This document shows positions 1 through 8,281 of a DNA stretch of 36,963 nucleotides, in pieces (position 1 is the first letter of the stretch; every line of letters starts with the position of its first letter). This stretch comes from a virus (taxonomy: Duplodnaviria; Heunggongvirae; Uroviricota; Caudoviricetes), in the IMG/VR virus record IMGVR_UViG_2563366920_000001; one strand, written 5' to 3'. The notes under the pieces are model-generated. The model had not been told where the DNA came from, ran no database searches, and saw only the letters and a program-made list of their open reading frames with translations. Both the position numbers and the translations under genes were made by a program.

Positions 1-1254
1 ATGCTGGAACAAATGGGCATTGCCGCGAAGCAAGCCTCGTATAAATTAGCGCAACTCTCCAGCCGCGAAAAAAATCGTGTGCTGGAAAAAATCGCCGATG
101 AACTGGAAGCACAAAGCGAAAGCATCCTCAACGCTAACGCACAGGATGTTGCAGACGCGCGTGCCAATGGCCTTAGCGAAGCGATGCTTGACCGTCTGGC
201 ACTGACGCCCGCACGGCTGAAAGGCATTGCCGACGATGTGCGCCAGGTGTGCAATCTCGCCGATCCGGTGGGGCAGGTAATCGATGGCGGCGTACTGGAC
301 AGCGGCCTGCGTCTTGAGCGTCGTCGCGTACCGCTGGGGGTGATTGGTGTGATTTATGAAGCGCGCCCGAACGTGACGGTTGATGTTGCTTCCCTGTGCC
401 TGAAAACCGGTAACGCGGTGATCCTGCGCGGCGGCAAAGAAACCTGTCGCACTAACGCTGCAACGGTAGCGGTGATTCAGGACGCCCTGAAATCCTGCGG
501 CTTACCGGCGGGTGCCGTGCAGGCAATTGATAATCCTGACCGTGCGCTGGTCAGTGAAATGCTGCGTATGGATAAATACATCGACATGCTGATCCCGCGC
601 GGTGGGGCTGGTTTGCATAAACTGTGCCGCGAGCAGTCGACAATCCCGGTGATCACAGGCGGTATAGGCGTATGCCATATTTACGTTGATGAAAGCGCAG
701 AGATCGCTGAAGCCCTGAAAGTAATTGTCAACGCGAAAACTCAGCGTCCGAGCACGTGTAATACGGTAGAAACGTTGCTGGTGAATAAAAACATCGCTGA
801 TAGCTTCCTGCCCACATTAAGCAAACAAATGGCGGAAAGCGGCGTGACGTTACACGCTGATGCAGCCGCGCTGGCGCAGTTGCAGGCAGGCCCCGCGAAG
901 GTGGTGGCTGTTAAAGCCGAAGAGTATGACGATGAGTTTCTGTCATTAGATTTGAACGTCAAAATCGTTAGCGATCTGGATGACGCCATTGCCCATATTC
1001 GTGAACACGGCACGCAACACTCCGATGCGATCCTGACCCGCGATATGCGCAACGCCCAGCGTTTTGTTAACGAAGTGGATTCCTCCGCTGTTTACGTTAA
1101 CGCCTCTACGCGTTTTACCGACGGCGGCCAGTTTGGACTGGGGGCGGAAGTGGCGGTAAGCACACAAAAACTCCACGCGCGCGGCCCAATGGGGCTGGAA
1201 GCACTGACCACTTACAAGTGGATCGGCATTGGTGATTACACCATTCGTGCGTAA
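1..1254 (+). CDS. proA: Gamma-glutamyl phosphate reductase, complete (417 aa)
   Basis: ATG at 1, stop at 1252-1254. Translation matches E. coli ProA over its full length as I recall it. Host core gene. Confidence 0.95.
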
Positions 1255-1368
1255 ATAAAACCGGGTGATGCAAAAGTAGCCATTTGATTCACAAGGCCAT
1301 TGACGCATCGCCCGGTTAGTTTTAACCTTGTCCACCGTGATTCACGTTCGTGAACATGTCCTTTCAGG

Positions 1369-1444
1369 GCCGATATAGCTCAGTTGGTAGAGCAGCGCAT
1401 TCGTAATGCGAAGGTCGTAGGTTCGACTCCTATTATCGGCACCA
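1369..1444 (+). tRNA. thrW: tRNA-Thr (anticodon CGU)
   Basis: 76-nt cloverleaf GCCGATATAGCTCAGTTGGTAGAGC...GGTTCGACTCC...TATCGGCACCA with anticodon loop TTCGTAA and encoded CCA end. Lies downstream of proA as in E. coli. Confidence 0.9.
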
Positions 1445-1458
1445 TTTAAATCAATAAG
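1400..1458. other. Prophage left junction (attL), overlapping the 3' part of thrW; exact core not resolvable from one junction
   Basis: The integrase stop codon lies 14 bp beyond the tRNA 3' end. P22-type integrases use the 3' segment of thrW as core (established knowledge). Confidence 0.35.
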
Positions 1459-2622
1459 TTACACATCATTAGTACCTTCCTTATTTTTTGACTGGGACAA
1501 ATTTGGGACCGATGGGTTCAGGATCGAGTCTATTTGCCGTGCGTGTTCGGTAAGGTGATTAGGTGCAAGGTGAGCATATCGACGAACCATTTCGATAGAC
1601 TCCCAGCCTCCCATTTCCTGTAACACTGACAACGGGACTCCGGCTTGAACCAGCCAACTTGCCCAGGTGTGTCTCAAGTCGTGAAATCTGAAATCATCAA
1701 TACCAGCCCGTCTCAGCGCCGCTTTCCAGGCTGTGTTTGCGTCATACCGCATCTTCCTTACTGTTGGCGCTTTCGTTCCGTCTGGTTTGGTACAGCTTTC
1801 CTTGTACACAAATACCCAACGGTGATGATTCCCGATTTGTTTTTTCAATACGCGACATGCAGTATCATTCAGCGCAACGCCAATTGCGCGGTTTGATTTA
1901 CTCTCTTCCGGGTTTATCCATGCCACCCGGCGCTGCATATCTATTTGTTGCCATTCAAGGTTGATGATGTTCGAGCGTCTTAAGCCTGTTGCCAGTGCAA
2001 ATTCAACAACAGACTTTAATGGCTCCGGACATTCATCAATCAGCCTTTGTGCTTCATGGGGCTCCAGCCAGCGGATCCGTTTATTCTTTGGTTGAGGCAC
2101 TTTAATAATTGGTGCCTTATCCAGCATTTTCCATTCACGCTCTGCGGCTCTTAGTAGGGCCTTTATAAATGAAAGATGCGTAGCCTTCGTTGCAACGGAC
2201 GCTGGTTTTGGCGTGTATTCTGGAACAGGTTTCCCTTTTTTTCTGCATGCTTCTGCCCTGAGTTTCCAGTTTTCCTCATGACGCCGGTTCGTCATTTTCT
2301 GCATTGCTGAATAAATTTTTGATTCAGTAATGTCTCTTAGTTGCATTCCTGCGAAATGTTGAAGCCAGAATCCGATCCGGCTTTTGTCATCGTCCAGTGA
2401 TTTTTTATGTGCTTTCTCTTCAAGCCACCTGACACACGCTTCCTCGAACGTTATATCAGGTATTTCACCAAGTTTGCTGACCCGCCATGCTTCAGCCTTT
2501 AGCTTGTCATGGAGTTCTGTCGCCTGCCTTTTGTCCTTTGTTCCAAGAGACTGTTTAAATCTTTTACCGTTCGGCAATGTGAAACTGGCGTACCATATTT
2601 CACCTCTGCGGAAGAGTGACAT
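1459..2622 (-). CDS. int: Tyrosine integrase, P22-type (387 aa)
   Basis: ATG at 2622-2620 with GAGGAAAG Shine-Dalgarno. N-terminus [46 protein letters not shown] and C-terminal [39 protein letters not shown] match the P22 Int family catalytic region. Confidence 0.9.
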
Positions 2623-4139: not shown

Positions 4140-4520
4140 TGCCCCCGTAGGGGCGGTTAGTTTCTCCACAAAACAGAGAAGAACACCTGCGGTGGCAGCC
4201 GCCCGGATGGATTGGGTTATGAGCCCGTCGTCCGGTGATGCTCTTCTCTGTTTTGTAAAAAGGACGGTACCAGCCGGAAGCAAGGGTACAAACTGGTACC
4301 GCCAGGACTACACACAGCATAAAGTTGTGGTGCCGGGTGCCTCCCGGTGCCTGGCGAAGGTTGCACACCAGGCGGGTGGGTATCCACAGAAGGTCGACTG
4401 TCAGCCTCAACCTTAACCCGCGTGCGCTGAGCCGCATTCACCACAACGCTAAGGATTCTCTCTGGTTGAAAATACTTAGCTGTTATGTGCCTGCTTTTAG
4501 CCACATCAGGCGAGGTGGAC
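4140..4520. other. GC-rich, highly self-complementary non-coding island (candidate structured RNA or cis element)
   Basis: No protein-like ORF on either strand; the listed ORFs here are Arg/Cys/His/Pro-rich junk. Perfect 15-bp inverted repeat 4168-4182 / 4242-4256 around a GC-rich 59-nt core, plus GGTACC-containing hairpins at 4264-4303. GC content is clearly higher than the AT-rich flanks. Confidence 0.3.
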
Positions 4521-4587: not shown

Positions 4588-5022
4588 ATGTCCGGTAATA
4601 TCTATACGCTGTACAAATCCCACTGTGAAAATGTTGGAAAGTATCGGGGCATTGAAATCAGTGGGGTAGTGTCATCAGTCGAAATAAGCAAAGTTGAATC
4701 AAGGGCAACATTACTTACTCTTTTGGACCTTGTCTTACATGAGCACCGGAAGAAATTCGGCACTCCCTATAATCAGTTGAATGGGAAAAAGGCTCTGGTT
4801 CACCTTATTCTGATGAAGCATCACTGGATGCCAAAACAGATTAATGAGATGAAATTTGATGAACTTCTTCTTTCAATTCAGGATGAACTCACACTTGATA
4901 AAATAAGCGTAACCGCCCAGAAATTTTTAGATTATCGAGACTGGAGATCACAAATTCATCACTTTGATGATTTTGACGAAAATGAATGGGATCCTAATTT
5001 GTCTGCACAATATCTAAAGTAA
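4588..5022 (+). CDS. Hypothetical protein (144 aa), AT-rich accessory gene convergent with the PL operon
   Basis: ATG at 4588 with AAGGAA Shine-Dalgarno. Plausible soluble-protein composition, low GC. Its 3' end overlaps the 3' end of the opposite-strand small gene by 29 bp. Confidence 0.5.
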   Translation: MSGNIYTLYKSHCENVGKYRGIEISGVVSSVEISKVESRATLLTLLDLVLHEHRKKFGTPYNQLNGKKALVHLILMKHHWMPKQINEMKFDELLLSIQDELTLDKISVTAQKFLDYRDWRSQIHHFDDFDENEWDPNLSAQYLK

Positions 5023-5200
5023 CATCCTGTGATAAAACCGTGATTTCCTGATCCAGTTTTTTTAAGGAGTCTATTGTTTCCTGTCGATAAGACAGCACTT
5101 CACGAAGCTGGTTTATAGCTGCCAGCTTCTTTGTCATCCACTCATAAATTTCCTCATCTGTGTAGCCAGGCGCGACGATTTTGGGTTCTGTTTTGTGCAT
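4994..5200 (-). CDS. Small acidic PL-proximal protein (68 aa)
   Basis: ATG at 5200-5198 with GGAG upstream (the ORF track begins at a TTG five codons earlier). First ORF downstream of the predicted PL. Coiled-coil-like C-terminus; no arginine-rich motif, so not an obvious N-type antiterminator. Confidence 0.45.
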   Translation of the reverse strand: MHKTEPKIVAPGYTDEEIYEWMTKKLAAINQLREVLSYRQETIDSLKKLDQEITVLSQDVTLDIVQTN

Positions 5201-5364
5201 TTCACATCTCCTCAAGTTATCAGTTACTTGTTGATGGGGACCAGATTGTTAAAGAGCTAAGCGTCCTGTAGGGCGCTTTTTTGTTGCTAACGAATCATCC
5301 TGGACTTCATATGCCCCAGGCGGCTACTTCGTGGGCGTCCTGCCTGTTCGTTGTTTCGCTTGGG

Positions 5365-5397
5365 TACATTATGTATCTCAAAGGTACATTGTCAAGT
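5365..5397 (-). promoter_or_regulatory. Leftward early promoter PL with overlapping operator-like palindrome
   Basis: On the minus strand: -35 TTGACA (5395-5390), 17-18 bp spacer, -10 CATAAT/ATAATG (5372-5367). TGTAT-N7-GTACA inverted repeat at 5372-5388 resembles the OR palindromes. Confidence 0.45.
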
Positions 5398-5399
5398 AT

Positions 5400-5420
5400 A
5401 AAAAAACCTGCCGAAGCAGG
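5400..5420 (-). terminator. Rho-independent terminator after cI
   Basis: Minus-strand hairpin CCTGC-TTCG-GCAGG (5407-5420) followed by a run of T residues, 14 nt after the cI stop. Confidence 0.55.
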
Positions 5421-5434
5421 TTCATAAACATTGA

Positions 5435-6109
5435 TTAGGCTTTGATTTTGTATCTTCTTGGTTTTCCTGAGAAAATCACTGTACCAATTATAGAGCAATT
5501 ACCGTTGATCTTAATGTAAGGCTCAGGCCAGTTTGGGTTTAACGCTTTGAGATAACGCTGTGTCCCATCTTCTATCAACCTTTTGAAGGTGGTTTCGCCT
5601 GTATCGTGCATCAATGCAATAACGTCGTCACCGTGGCAGGCAGGTACTTCAGGATCGACAAAAATCATGTCTCCCGGGCGGTACTCATCAATCATTGAAT
5701 CACCTATCACCCGCAAGATATAAGTCATTTCCCCACAGGGTACAGGGCAGGGATACGTTTCTGCTGTGCTCAAATCAACCTCAGAATATCCAACTTCTTT
5801 CCATGCTCCGGCCTGTACCCATGATATGACAGGGACTAATGTGATTTGTTTATTAGTGATTGAAACATCAGGTTTTTTTGTGATGTTCGTTGTCTGGTGT
5901 TCTTGATCGAGCCATCCGACAGGCAGGTCGAAACATTTTTCGATGTGTCGTGCCATGCTGTCACCGATATTTTTAGTAGCACCATCTCCCATAAACCTGC
6001 TGGTCTGGGTTGGCTCGCGATCAATCATAGTGGCAAAGGAAGAATTCCCGCCAACACCATCTCTCAGTTTTCTGGCGTTAGACCGCCGGATGTCATGGAT
6101 TGTTTTCAT
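5435..6109 (-). CDS. cI: CI-type repressor (HTH plus S24 LexA-like peptidase domain, 224 aa)
   Basis: N-terminal HTH region and C-terminal autocleavage-domain character (ILRVIGDSMIDEYRPGDMIFVDPEV...GETTFKRL). ATG at 6109 sits 6 nt after the PRM -10, so the mRNA is leaderless as in lambda cI. Confidence 0.85.
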   Translation of the reverse strand: MKTIHDIRRSNARKLRDGVGGNSSFATMIDREPTQTSRFMGDGATKNIGDSMARHIEKCFDLPVGWLDQEHQTTNITKKPDVSITNKQITLVPVISWVQAGAWKEVGYSEVDLSTAETYPCPVPCGEMTYILRVIGDSMIDEYRPGDMIFVDPEVPACHGDDVIALMHDTGETTFKRLIEDGTQRYLKALNPNWPEPYIKINGNCSIIGTVIFSGKPRRYKIKA

Positions 6110-6199
6110 AACGAAATTAAAACCCTTGTACCGTTAAGGTACAAGTATCTTGAAGGTTCATTTCAATCATGTAATATGTACACCGGAGGTACATATTGT
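6110..6199. promoter_or_regulatory. Immunity switch region: PRM, PR and operator palindromes
   Basis: PRM on minus strand: -35 TTGTAC (6144-6139), 17 bp, -10 TTTAAT (6121-6116). PR on plus strand: -35 TTGAAG (6150-6155), 16 bp, -10 TAATAT (6172-6177). Palindromes TTGTACC-GTTAA-GGTACAA (6126-6144) and ATATGTAC-N7-GTACATAT (6174-6196). Confidence 0.5.
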
Positions 6200-6400
6200 A
6201 TGAAAGCGTATTGGGACTCTTTAACCAAAGAACAGCAGGGCGAGTTGGCCGGAAAAGTTGGCTCAACACCTGGCTACTTACGGCTGGTTTTCAATGGCTA
6301 TAAAAAAGCCAGTTTTGTGCTGGCTAAAAAACTTGAGCAATGCACGTCAGGTGCAATTACGAAATCTGACTTAAGACCGGATATCTATCCGAAAGATTAG
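6200..6400 (+). CDS. cro: Cro-like HTH repressor (66 aa)
   Basis: ATG at 6200 with GGAGG 11 nt upstream. HTH stretch QQGELAGKVGSTPGYLRLVFNG. Divergent from cI. The longer ORF-track entry starting at 5897 is a read-through artefact. Confidence 0.7.
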   Translation: MKAYWDSLTKEQQGELAGKVGSTPGYLRLVFNGYKKASFVLAKKLEQCTSGAITKSDLRPDIYPKD

Positions 6401-6431: not shown

Positions 6432-6995
6432 ATGAGGCTAACCGTGGGTAAGCATCACTGGAAAATAGAAAAACAGCCTGAGTGGTACGTGAAAGCTGTC
6501 AGAAAAACTATCGCGGCGTTGCCGGGTGGTTACGCTGAAGCGGCTGACTGGCTCGATGTAACAGAAAACGCTTTATTCAACCGCCTTCGTGCAGATGGCG
6601 ATCAGATTTTCCCGCTGGGATGGGCAATGGTTTTACAGCGTGCTGGTGGCACTCACTTCATTGCTGATGCTGTGGCGCAGTCTGCAAATGGCGTCTTTGT
6701 GTCTCTTCCTGACGTCGAGGATGTGGACAACGCCGATATCAACCAACGCCTGCTGGAAGTCATTGAACAGATCGGCAGTTATTCAAAACAGATTCGTTCA
6801 GCAATTGAAGACGGTGTAGTGGAACCGCATGAGAAGACAGCAATTAACGATGAGCTGTACCTCTCAATTTCGAAGCTGCAGGAGCATGCAGCACTGGTCT
6901 ACAAAATCTTTTGCGTTTCAGAAAGTAGTGACGCCCGCGAGTGTGCAGCTCCGGGCGCCGTGGCGTGTCGTGACTGTGGAGAAACTAACGCATGA
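6432..6995 (+). CDS. Regulatory protein in the cII position (YdaT/CII-like family suspected, 187 aa)
   Basis: ATG at 6432. C-terminal CxxC pair. Position immediately after cro. Family assignment is from memory of prophage YdaT-like proteins and is uncertain. Confidence 0.45.
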
Positions 6996-7339: not shown

Positions 7340-8281
7340 ATGAGCACTAAATTAACCGGCTATGTATGGGATGGTTGCGCTGCGTCAGGCATGAAATTAT
7401 CCAGCGTGGCAATTATGGCCCGCCTGGCTGATTTCAGTAATGACGAAGGTGTGTGCTGGCCATCAATTGAAACCATTGCCCGTCAGATTGGCGCGGGGAT
7501 GAGTACCGTCAGGACGGCTATCGCACGGCTGGAAGCAGAAGGCTGGTTAACGCGTAAGGCGCGTCGCCAGGGTAACCGCAATGCGTCGAATGTTTATCAG
7601 CTTAACGTTGCGAAGCTTCAGGCAGCGGCATTTTCTCAACTGTCAGATTCTGACCCGTCAAAATCTGACGCATCAAAATCTGACCCGTCAAAATTTGATG
7701 CGTCGAAATCTGGCAAAAAAGCGGGTTTTCACCCGTCAGAATCTGGCGGGGATCCGTCAGTAAAATCAAAACATGATCCGTCAGATAAAAAACCTTCTCG
7801 TCCGGACGCTTCGCAACCGGACACGCAGACGGATGAACAGGATTTTTTAACTCGCCATCCTGATGCGGTTGTATTCAGCCCTAAAAAGCGCCAGTGGGGA
7901 ACGCAGGATGATTTGACCTGCGCACAGTGGCTCTGGAAAAAAATCATCGCCCTGTACGAGCAAGCCGCCGAATGTGACGGCAAGGTGGTTCGTCCCAAAG
8001 AACCGAACTGGACAGCCTGGGCAAACGAAATTCGCCTGATGTGTGTGCAGGATGGTCGTACTCACAAACAAATCTGCGAGATGTACAGCCGCGTCAGCCG
8101 CGATCCGTTCTGGTGCCGTAACGTGCTCAGCCCGTCGAAGTTGCGGGAAAAATGGGATGAGCTTTCCCTGCGCTTATCACCGTCCGTCAGCACGTACATC
8201 GAAAAACGCGAAGACCCGTACTTCAAATCCAGTTACGACAACGTGGACTACAGCCAGATCCCGGCAGGATTCAGGGGGTGA
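7340..8281 (+). CDS. Replication initiation protein (O-like; N-terminal HTH, iteron-encoded linker, C-terminal domain)
   Basis: ATG at 7340 with GAGG Shine-Dalgarno. N-terminus MSTKLTGYVWDG...VCWPSIETIARQIGAGMSTVRTAIARLEAEGWL is typical of phage replication initiators. The central SDSDPSKSDASKSDPSKFDASKS repeat is coded by the DNA iterons. Confidence 0.7.
   Translation: MSTKLTGYVWDGCAASGMKLSSVAIMARLADFSNDEGVCWPSIETIARQIGAGMSTVRTAIARLEAEGWLTRKARRQGNRNASNVYQLNVAKLQAAAFSQLSDSDPSKSDASKSDPSKFDASKSGKKAGFHPSESGGDPSVKSKHDPSDKKPSRPDASQPDTQTDEQDFLTRHPDAVVFSPKKRQWGTQDDLTCAQWLWKKIIALYEQAAECDGKVVRPKEPNWTAWANEIRLMCVQDGRTHKQICEMYSRVSRDPFWCRNVLSPSKLREKWDELSLRLSPSVSTYIEKREDPYFKSSYDNVDYSQIPAGFRG
7646..7790. 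repeat. Iteron array (putative ori) inside the replication initiator gene
   Basis: At least six tandem copies of a 15-16 bp unit with core CCGTCA(A/G)AAT (for example CTGACCCGTCAAAAT twice, CTGACGCATCAAAAT, GATCCGTCAGTAAAAT), analogous to lambda ori iterons within gene O. Confidence 0.55.

Follow-up and report, generated by a model that had tools for sequence, protein, structure and literature searches.

Genes, promoters and the leaderless cI transcript

The stretch of DNA analysed here (36,963 bp, hereafter the window) carries two divergent genes, cI and cro, separated by a 90-bp intergenic region (6110-6199), with the gene of a CII-like regulator located after cro. The genes of the region are:

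5435..6109, minus strand: cI-type repressor, 224 aa; ymfK/cohE of e14, cI of SfV and SfIV, annotated as ymfK in E. coli genomes
6200..6400, plus strand: cro, 66 aa; YdaS-type helix-turn-helix (HTH) protein, phrog_35 (transcriptional repressor); ymfT/croE of e14
6432..6995, plus strand: CII-like regulator, 187 aa; Pfam Phage_CP76 (1.4e-13) and phrog_101, CII-like activator (1e-70); ymfL

The C-terminal domain of the repressor is of the S24/LexA type (Pfam Peptidase_S24, PF00717, E 1.5e-26) and aligns to the C-terminal domain of lambda cI (1F39/3BDN). Its N-terminal HTH-type domain aligns to Rep of Salmonella phage SPC32H (5D50, E 5e-4). A putative cleavage site, Ala100-Gly101, is found together with Ser138 (in GDSM) and Lys176 (in FKRL). 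Genes for int, xis and replication are also present in the window. Gene content and layout support the assignment of this locus as a lambdoid immunity region; together with the operators overlapping PR, PRM and PL described below, they bear out the lambda-like immunity switch proposed in the initial annotation.

The comparison with known lambdoid immunity regions, which had also been proposed there, gave close matches. The whole cI-cro intergenic region, including OR, is 100% identical to its ymfK-ymfT counterpart in the E. coli K-12 prophage e14; for the wider region, the identity to Shigella phages SfV and SfIV is 98-99% (98.2-98.8% over 1.2-1.3 kb). Of 5426 complete E. coli genomes, 1324 carry the region, i.e. 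about one quarter. In the GenBank record of SfV, a "putative operator region" of 69 bp corresponds to positions 6126-6194 of the window, and YmfK has been listed as an SOS-sensitive repressor of e14 (PMC8249747). The immunity switch is, therefore, already known, and its immunity specificity, being of the e14/SfV/SfIV type, is not new.

The promoters and the terminator of the switch were located as follows:

5368..5395, minus strand: PL, TTGACA-16-CATAAT, 11/12 match to consensus; predicted start near 5361
5404..5423, minus strand: cI intrinsic terminator, 8 pairs followed by a T run that abuts the PL -35 hexamer
6109, minus strand: PRM transcription start, at the A of the cI ATG (published dRNA-seq on the identical K-12 e14 sequence)
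6116..6121, minus strand: PRM -10 hexamer TTTAAT, separated from the cI ATG by 6 nt
6139..6144, minus strand: PRM -35 hexamer TTGTAC, 17-bp spacer; within the right arm of OR3, in the invariant GGTACAAG
6150..6155, plus strand: PR -35 hexamer TTGAAG; CTTGnnG is conserved in relatives
6172..6177, plus strand: PR -10 hexamer TAATAT, 16-bp spacer; TAATAT, CATAAT or TAGAAT in relatives

For comparative purposes, a set of 18 lineages with a cI identity of 73-100% was used. PL is invariant in the relatives, and a promoter is annotated at its position in the Ayreon record. Agreement with the sigma-70 consensus is weak for PR (8/12) and PRM (7/12); both fell below the threshold of the consensus scanner and were not called, but they are conserved in the relatives nevertheless.

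The layout of these elements is the one first read from the sequence. The -35 hexamers of PRM (6144..6139) and PR (6150-6155) are back to back, 5 bp apart, and exactly 6 nt (TTCGTT) lie between the PRM -10 hexamer and the cI ATG at 6109. An intrinsic terminator (5423..5404, minus strand) is indeed located between cI and PL, and in the relatives its stem displays, by inspection, compensatory changes, for example from CCTGC/GCAGG to CCCGC/GCGGG and GCCCG/CGGGC.

The initial annotation had also claimed that the cI mRNA is leaderless. In the dRNA-seq study of E. coli MG1655 by Romero et al. 2014 (PMC4681348), five leaderless mRNAs are listed, and e14 ymfK is among them; its class I transcription start (RVS_(I)-1202156) coincides with the start of the gene, giving a leader length of 0 nt. 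This start was mapped on an identical sequence, and the leaderless nature of the cI transcript is therefore supported by experiment. The comparative data concern the same few nucleotides: the motif TnTAAT of the PRM -10 hexamer is found at a fixed distance in 16 of the 18 lineages, the consensus fraction is 0.89 for the hexamer vs. 0.44 for the 6-nt gap, and no positioned Shine-Dalgarno sequence was found in this gap across the lineages.

Putative operators at OR and OL

The sites proposed as operators, none of which is assigned to a strand, are listed below:

5352..5368: candidate OL2, direct repeat D1; sixth in the matrix ranking, overlapping the PL start
5372..5388: OL1, putative operator TGTATCTCAAAGGTACA, between the -35 and -10 hexamers of PL; top matrix score in the window (27.0)
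6127..6143: OR3-like putative operator TGTACCGTTAAGGTACA, perfect palindrome extended to 6125-6145; within the spacer of PRM, with its centre at -26 relative to the PRM start
6144..6160: candidate weak OR2 AGTATCTTGAAGGTTCA, overlapping the PR -35 hexamer; centred at -43 from the PRM start
6177..6193: OR1-like putative operator TGTACACCGGAGGTACA, palindrome extended to 6174-6196; over the edge of the PR -10 hexamer and the start region

The pattern TGTACNNNNNNNGTACA, with at most one mismatch, has exactly three matches in the 36,963-bp window. The core TGTAC-N7-GTACA, already proposed as the operator motif at OR and near PL, was confirmed in all of them, being exact at 6127-6143 and 6177-6193 and having one mismatch at 5372-5388. 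In shuffled controls, the same pattern gave a mean of 0.61 matches, and three or more matches were obtained in 4 of 100 shuffles; by itself, the match count is only modestly unusual. The placement of the sites outweighs their count, because all three sit on promoters flanking the repressor gene; the repeated partial palindromes overlap PR and PRM at OR, and PL at OL.

The strong sites of 17 diverged relatives, and no site of the window, served to build a weight matrix. When all the positions of the window (about 37,000) were ranked with this matrix, OL1, OR1 and OR3 occupied ranks one to three with scores of 22.8-27.0, followed by the OR2 candidate at rank four (12.5). An inverted-repeat search extended the arms of OR3 to CTTGTACC/GGTACAAG, which are 100% complementary, and returned 15-nt arms around 6167-6203 for OR1. 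Conservation of the half-sites across the 18 lineages is 0.90-1.00; in OR3, the consensus fraction is 0.97 and 1.00 for the two half-sites and 0.49 for the central 5 bp. The spacing from OR3 to OR1 is strictly conserved, with no indels in any of the 18 lineages. OL1 is a perfect TGTACC-N5-GGTACA in most relatives. At the OL2 candidate, only the half-site GGTACA (5363-5368), 20 bp from the centre of OL1, is conserved, and the left half is not. The Shine-Dalgarno sequence of cro, GGAGG (6185-6189), lies inside OR1. A further palindrome, TTGAA-N7-TTCAA at 6150-6166, resembled by eye the operators of HK022, but was rejected, as the relatives do not conserve its right arm.

The operators were assigned from their symmetry, position and conservation, and the sites are accordingly referred to as putative. 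A literature search for published binding of YmfK or CroE (repressor or Cro) to these putative operators found none, although the system is present in K-12.

Another conceivable role of the palindromes is that of RNA hairpins or terminators in the main. For example, a hairpin at 6145..6125 followed by GGTTTTAATT (minus strand) might attenuate leftward transcripts into cI, and our terminator scan did list a terminator-like structure of 8 pairs, 4 of them GC, at 6145..6125 (minus strand). However, the T-rich tail after this hairpin is the PRM -10 hexamer, and the same half-site is present at OR1 and OL1 without a T run. Moreover, the arms of the palindromes are invariant, with no compensatory changes, and the loops are variable, a pattern which fits sequence-specific contacts with a protein and not an RNA stem. 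A role of this kind is therefore very unlikely, and the palindromes are better regarded as putative protein-binding sites.

Equally, the motifs could be conserved through recent common descent only, in a region that is nothing but an inactive remnant. The e14 prophage of K-12 is annotated as defective, and many copies of the region are more than 95% identical. Yet half-sites, promoter hexamers and spacing are kept, and neighbouring positions have diverged, in relatives that have 73-88% cI identity and belong to at least 15 genera; the region is carried by isolated viable phages (SfV, SfIV, cdtI and Stx2c phages); ymfK is transcribed in K-12; and the window has its own int, xis and replication genes. 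We consider the remnant hypothesis as having almost no chance of being correct.

As for the number of operators at OR, the initial annotation had recognized only two clear palindromes. This is correct for perfect palindromes, but it does not take into account the degenerate third candidate at 6144-6160, which adjoins OR3 with 17 bp between the two centres. One could maintain that OR has two operators only, and that the conserved CTTGnnGGTTCAT block is just the PR -35 hexamer with its spacer, or the site of some other factor (Cro only, CII/YmfL or a host protein). Indeed, the left half of the candidate is variable among the relatives where the strong sites are invariant (AGTAT, AGTAC, AGTGT, AGGTC and AGTTC were found, the consensus fraction being 0.90), 9 of 12 half-site positions are matched in the window, and the score is far below the values of the strong sites. 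In addition, a centre-to-centre distance of 17 bp is unlike that of the operators of lambda, 434 or P22; it could give a steric clash instead of cooperativity. On the other hand, only three positions in 37 kb score better than the candidate, which falls within the 33 bp separating two strong sites; all 18 lineages share its GGTTCA half without change, whereas promoter spacers normally drift, even if this conservation might reflect another purpose; and, being centred at -43 relative to the PRM start, it reproduces the geometry of lambda OR2. Taking all this into account, a two-operator OR appears rather unlikely, while keeping some weight, and OR probably comprises three sites, the third being a degenerate candidate.

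The leader RNA of the PL transcript

Beyond positions 5365-6199, but in the same control region, two elements were found on the PL transcript:

5282..5359, minus strand: structured leader RNA, 78 nt, at the 5' end of the PL transcript, with strong covariation
5246..5257, minus strand: rrn-type boxA GCTCTTTAACAA, single exact match in the window

The leader RNA begins at 5359, almost at the predicted PL start (5361), in a phage with no N. It has three covarying helices and a near-invariant 26-nt core. The evidence for its structure is covariation and not folding energy, because the fold of the single sequence is not significant (z = -1.0). Many temperate phages whose repressors and operators are unrelated carry the same RNA immediately after the early-left promoter, and it is present in e14 of K-12 as well. 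Rfam 15 contains no family for it (a search of 4 kb at E <= 1 was empty, and one of 151 nt at E <= 10 produced only noise), and a literal text search of the searchable literature gave no match to its core sequence.

As regards antitermination, no ORF of the left operon matches an N family. The first ORF of the PL transcript (5200..4994, 68 aa) has no Pfam hit, belongs to phrog_1744 (function unknown) and is not Arg-rich. A hairpin at 5278..5259 (minus strand) precedes boxA, whereas a boxB of the lambda type would follow it. Further along the PL transcript, a terminator-like hairpin lies near 4260. In the N-less phage HK022, the structured RNA begins almost at the PL transcription start (PMC9378689), and the same is observed here; the leader RNA may be a put-like antitermination leader. 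The put RNAs are about 70 nt long, and their read-through of terminators depends on the zinc-binding domain of the RNA polymerase beta' subunit. Homology to HK022 put was considered and rejected: our covariance model of the leader RNA (R1) finds nothing in the PL/PR region of HK022, and a blastn-short comparison with putL and putR returned only an 8-mer. The architecture also differs, with a closing helix and two internal hairpins here and two adjacent stems in put. A putR-like second copy was not found downstream of PR, the leader RNA being present in a single copy in the window and once per locus in 63 viral contigs.

It is conceivable, as a tentative proposal that we would not yet favour, that this leader represents a second family of cis-acting RNAs, far more widespread than put, which would make RNA polymerase resistant to termination in N-less phages, either alone, like put, or together with boxA and host Nus factors. 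If it were an antitermination element, it would explain the expression of the early-left operon in a large group of N-less lambdoid phages, and E. coli K-12 would offer a ready model for its study.

Proposed switch and comparison with known systems

In all likelihood, the region is the lysis-lysogeny switch of a lambdoid prophage inserted at thrW, with e14/SfV/SfIV immunity. In the lysogen, the S24-family repressor is expressed from PRM through a leaderless mRNA starting on its own ATG, as mapped on the identical sequence, and this transcript would end at the terminator at 5423..5404. Repressor dimers are expected to bind the 17-bp sites, whose consensus is TGTACC-N5-GGTACA. Occupancy of OR1, over the PR -10 hexamer and start, and of the weak OR2 candidate, over the PR -35 hexamer, would shut off cro and the rightward operon, while binding at OL1, between the PL -35 and -10 hexamers, and at the adjacent half-site at the PL start would keep the leftward operon off. 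Positive autoregulation is plausible, because the centre of the OR2 candidate, at -43, is in the position from which lambda CI bound at OR2 activates PRM. OR3, in the PRM spacer, would repress PRM upon binding of Cro, or of repressor when this is abundant. It should be noted that such a perfect and highly conserved OR3 is hard to reconcile with an active PRM in K-12 lysogens, unless repressor affinity for it is low or occupancy is partial.

Upon DNA damage, RecA would stimulate self-cleavage of the repressor at Ala100-Gly101, and Cro, translated from the Shine-Dalgarno sequence inside OR1, would then presumably bind the same sites. The CII homologue of the YmfL type may serve the establishment of lysogeny. 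Along the PL transcript, the conserved structured RNA and boxA probably replace the missing N/nut system.

The re-identification of an annotated e14/SfV immunity region adds little to present knowledge, and the leaderless repressor mRNA had already been published. What is added here is a map of operators and promoters with comparative support, which includes a weak OR2 candidate at the activator position, a conserved half-site beside OL1 and a strictly conserved operator spacing across lineages. Next to the known switch, the PL leader RNA is the item worth following up.

Among known systems, e14, SfV and SfIV match the window in genes, terminator, PL and leader RNA. In e14, OR is identical, and the K-12 cI gene differs by 5 nt; however, the prophage of the window is located at thrW, and its downstream left operon is not that of e14. 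SfV differs by a TGTAT in the left half of OR1 and by other bases in the OR3 spacer. The only solved structure matching residues 1-75 of the repressor is that of SPC32H Rep (PDB 5D50), and the similarity is weak (E 5e-4). SPC32H Rep has no S24 autocleavage domain and, partly according to the description of the entry, is inactivated by an antirepressor.

Coliphage HK022 is likewise an N-less lambdoid phage with OL and OR less than 1 kb apart; in the window, the OL and OR site centres are separated by 805 bp. The operator geometry of HK022 is the same, with half-sites of 5-6 bp around a 5-bp centre (HK022 OR, TTGAACCATAAGTTCAA); nevertheless, its half-site is TGAAC instead of TGTAC. The DNA-binding domain of the repressor was rejected as a homologue of that of HK022 cI, as the N-terminal domains have no similarity and only the C-terminal domains align.

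Neither the N-terminal DNA-binding domain nor the operator sequence is related to its lambda counterpart. Also in contrast to lambda, the sites are spaced by 17 and 33 bp instead of 23-24 bp, OL consists of one full site and a half-site, the CII protein is of the CP76/YmfL family, there is no N gene, and only a terminator separates cI from PL, with no rexAB. A leaderless repressor mRNA from the maintenance promoter is a feature of lambda that is not universal, and it is shared here. Also in common with lambda are the divergent cI and cro genes, an S24 repressor with an alignable C-terminal domain, the CII-type gene after cro, 17-bp partially symmetric putative operators overlapping PR, PRM and PL, and a candidate weak middle site centred at about -42/-43 from the PRM start.

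Genes and control elements of the immunity switch

The reading of this region as a lambda-like immunity switch, put forward in the initial annotation, is correct. Its genes and control elements are as follows.

Elements of the immunity switch (window positions)
5435-6109, minus: cI-type repressor gene, 224 aa, C-terminal Peptidase_S24 domain (Pfam, E 1.5e-26)
6200-6400, plus: cro-type HTH gene, 66 aa, divergent from cI
6432-6995, plus: CII/CP76-family gene, 187 aa, divergent from cI (Pfam 1.4e-13; phrog_101 1e-70)
6144..6139, minus: PRM -35, TTGTAC
6121..6116, minus: PRM -10, TTTAAT
6150-6155, plus: PR -35, TTGAAG
6172-6177, plus: PR -10, TAATAT
5423..5404, minus: stem-loop with T run, between cI and PL
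5395..5368, minus: PL, TTGACA-16-CATAAT, 11/12 match

The C-terminal domain of the repressor can be aligned to the solved structures of its lambda cI counterpart (1F39, 3BDN), and residues 1-75 show a weak match to the part of the Salmonella phage SPC32H repressor that binds DNA (5D50, E 5e-4). The sequence motifs Ala100-Gly101 (the putative cleavage site), Ser138 and Lys176 are all present. The gene directly after cro is annotated ymfL in E. coli. CII was described as absent from SfIV, SfV and SfII in the SfIV genome paper (PMC3851460), whereas the gene found here at 6432-6995 is a clear member of the CII/CP76 family.

Pattern and inverted-repeat searches found the TGTAC-N7-GTACA operators that had been claimed at OR and near PL. 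The motif is exact at 6127-6143 (OR3) and 6177-6193 (OR1) and has one mismatch at 5372-5388 (OL1), with no further matches in the 37 kb (expected 0.61; three reached in 4 of 100 shuffles); the sites fall in the 90-bp cI-cro intergenic region or just past the 3' end of cI. OR3 extends to a perfect palindrome at 6125-6145 (8+5+8). OL consists of a single full site, which lies between the -35 and -10 elements of PL, and a conserved GGTACA half-site at the PL start, 20 bp from the full site; OL and OR are 805 bp apart. The PRM and PR -35 hexamers do stand back to back, with 5 bp between them, and the stem-loop at 5423..5404 provides the intrinsic terminator expected between cI and PL.

The cI ATG follows the PRM -10 by exactly 6 nt, as annotated, and the proposal of a leaderless cI mRNA is supported by published data. 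Romero et al. (2014) mapped the transcription starts of MG1655 by differential RNA-seq, and found leaders shorter than 10 nt in just five mRNAs; among them is ymfK, the cI of the K-12 prophage e14, whose class I start coincides with the first base of the gene, i.e. a leader length of 0, rather than far upstream of the ATG (PMC4681348). Because the sequence is identical, this start applies to the window cI as well.

Operator conservation and a candidate third OR site

The OR region was aligned over 18 lineages with 17 diverged relatives, namely Hafnia phage yong2 and 16 prophages (of Pseudocitrobacter, Klebsiella, Atlantibacter, Leclercia, Phytobacter, Enterobacter, Pantoea, Trabulsiella, Kluyvera, Limnobaculum, Rahnella, Edwardsiella and other hosts), whose cI is 73-88% identical to that of the window. 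The half-sites of OR3 (consensus fraction 0.97 and 1.00) and of OR1 (0.90 and 1.00) are kept, the central 5 bp of OR3 are free (0.49), and no lineage has an indel between OR3 and OR1. This is the pattern predicted for protein-binding operators, unlike an RNA stem, which would predict compensatory change. The PRM -10 (TnTAAT) is also conserved (0.89); the 6-nt gap between it and the ATG is less so (0.44), and contains no positioned Shine-Dalgarno sequence in the alignment.

A weight matrix trained solely on the strong sites of the relatives was scanned across the whole window. OL1 (score 27.0), OR1 (26.9) and OR3 (22.8) took the first three ranks, followed in fourth place by 6142-6162 (12.5; core 6144-6160, AGTATC-TTGAA-GGTTCA); 5350-5370 ranked sixth (7.4). 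The right half of the fourth site, GGTTCA, is invariant in 18/18 lineages, and its left half is variable. The site overlaps the -35 of PR and is centred on 6152, at -43 relative to the PRM start; this is the position at which lambda CI bound to OR2 activates PRM. On these grounds (matrix rank, invariant half-site and position), we think that OR holds three sites, the middle one, at 6144-6160, being a weak putative operator. The earlier count of two clear OR palindromes rather than three therefore stands for the exact sites, but a weak third candidate has to be added. The candidate OR2 abuts OR3, with centres 17 bp apart, a spacing unlike that of lambda.

In the working of the switch that we propose, repressor dimers on OR1 and OR2 would block PR, while OL1 and the neighbouring half-site would block PL. 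PRM might be stimulated from OR2, and OR3, situated in the PRM spacer, would exert negative control through Cro or excess repressor. The cro Shine-Dalgarno sequence GGAGG is situated within OR1, and Cro would be translated from it. Induction of the prophage would proceed through RecA-stimulated cleavage at Ala100-Gly101, with which the listing of YmfK as an SOS-sensitive repressor is consistent (PMC8249747). OL-OR looping occurs in lambda and HK022 (PMC8053113). A literature search found no binding study on this repressor.

A conserved leader RNA of the PL transcript

On the PL transcript as predicted, a 78-nt leader RNA (5282-5359, minus) occupies positions +3 to +80. In a distant blastn search, window 5291-5355 proved to be conserved in many phages with otherwise unrelated immunity regions, including ST64B, SfII, ZF40, YeP1-3, mEp237, mEp460, SPN3UB, SEN34, Pantoea AH07, Aeromonas pAEv1818 and, in the terminal repeat, a T5-like Providencia phage; the records of the matching phages contain no annotation of it. 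In all cases examined, the repressor gene stands 100-200 nt upstream of it on the same strand, and the early-left genes follow. At each of about 59 distinct loci a strong TTGACA-type promoter stands directly upstream, while the operator sequences differ and there are at least 5 different first downstream genes. It is found in K-12 e14 between ymfJ and ymfK (locus L159, 4606-4684) and in SfV (locus L001, 1494-1571).

The consensus structure shows compensatory changes at 9 of 13 pairs in an alignment of 17 sequences. The outer helix occurs as GCGAA/UUCGC, CCACC/GGUGG, UCAUC/GAUGA or GGAAC/GUUCC, and a 5-bp hairpin, bearing the conserved loop GGCAUAYGAA, as CCUGG/CCAGG, CCGGU/ACCGG, CUACC/GGUAG or CCCGA/UCGGG; a 26-nt core, AGGCAGGACGCCCACGAAGUAGCCGC, is near-invariant. 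Among the 80 IMG/VR contigs with a core 14-mer, the covariance model gave full-length matches (63-97 bits) in 62 and a weaker one (35.6 bits) in one more, one per locus (63 loci). In their alignment, 96.6% of cells pair (73% in shuffles; only 20-47% in slid controls), and 184 cells carry double changes (64 in shuffles). Rfam 15 contains no match to the leader RNA, the covariance model does not match HK022 put, and a literal search of the searchable literature for the core gave no occurrence.

From its position and conservation, we propose that the RNA may be a put-like or Nus-assisted antitermination leader; rival readings are that it stabilises the 5' end or antagonises Rho.

Features of the left operon and prophage left end (window positions)
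1-1254: host Aldedh-family gene, proA-like, at the prophage left end (window 1-1460)
1369-1444: tRNA-Thr(CGT), thrW, the usual SfV-type attachment site
1459-2622, minus: int
2499-2933, minus: HTH_17 xis-like ORF
5278..5259, minus: hairpin AAGCGCCCTACAGGACGCTT, after the leader RNA
5257..5246, minus (PL transcript): perfect rrn-type boxA GCTCTTTAACAA, after the hairpin

The left operon extends to xis and int, beside thrW, and contains no N-like gene. The order hairpin-then-boxA is that of rrn leaders, not of lambda nut sites; on the plus strand, the hairpin reads as an intrinsic terminator. In a second phage group (loci L080, L086, L042, L057, L048 and others), boxA is replaced 3' of the leader RNA by a conserved, hairpin-containing module, TTAACGCGCAGCAGG..AAACGTTCCGCCAGCCTGGCGAyAAGGGCA, which in loci L084 and L055 stands before the leader RNA instead. 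Within the PL operon, 4255-4477 (minus) matches the Rfam sRNA STnc100 (RF02076) with 43.1 bits (E 3.3e-7), just below the gathering score of 47; its terminal hairpin and U run would terminate PL transcripts. A 144-aa ORF opposed to the operon (4588-5022, plus; phrog_5286, no Pfam match) reaches into the 3' end of the first PL ORF, and plus-strand terminators stand beyond it at 5104-5129 and 5259-5278; the ORF resembles a moron-type insertion that is expressed from the prophage. Elsewhere, repeated DNA at 7560-7720, inside the replication-initiator gene (7340-8281), encodes a run of DPSKSD/ASKSD repeats and yields spurious 'mir-5880' hairpin matches; these repeats are probably origin iterons within an O-like gene, as in lambda.

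Relation to known immunity regions

The immunity type is already known and annotated, and the PL leader RNA is a more promising lead than the switch itself. Over the 1.3 kb of the region, identity is 98.8% with Shigella phage SfIV, 98.2% with SfV, and about 96% with cdtI, Ayreon, 2H10 and a dozen Stx2c-converting phages. The 'putative operator region' of the SfV record U82619.2 coincides with window 6126-6194 to the base, from the first through the second palindrome, and the same record annotates the cI terminator. The region is present in 1324 of 5426 complete E. coli genomes, with the repressor annotated as ymfK, which in K-12 is the repressor gene of the cryptic prophage e14. In MG1655, window 6110-6199 is 100% identical, as is the OL/PL/terminator region, and there are 5 substitutions within cI. 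Mehta, Casjens and Krishnaswamy (BMC Microbiol 2004) reportedly used the similarity to SfV to identify the repressor and Cro of e14, as well as the sites that they bind.

Of the 6 substitutions that distinguish the 90-bp OR region from that of SfV or Ayreon, 5 affect operator centres or outer positions (6125, 6134, 6137, 6181, 6183), and one of these gives OR1 a perfect TGTAC in place of TGTAT in SfV. Such substitutions may fine-tune affinity between otherwise homoimmune phages. In HK022, whose repressor has an N-terminal domain without detectable relation to that of the window repressor, OR reads TTGAACCATAAGTTCAA, with the same half-site geometry as here and TGAAC replacing TGTAC.
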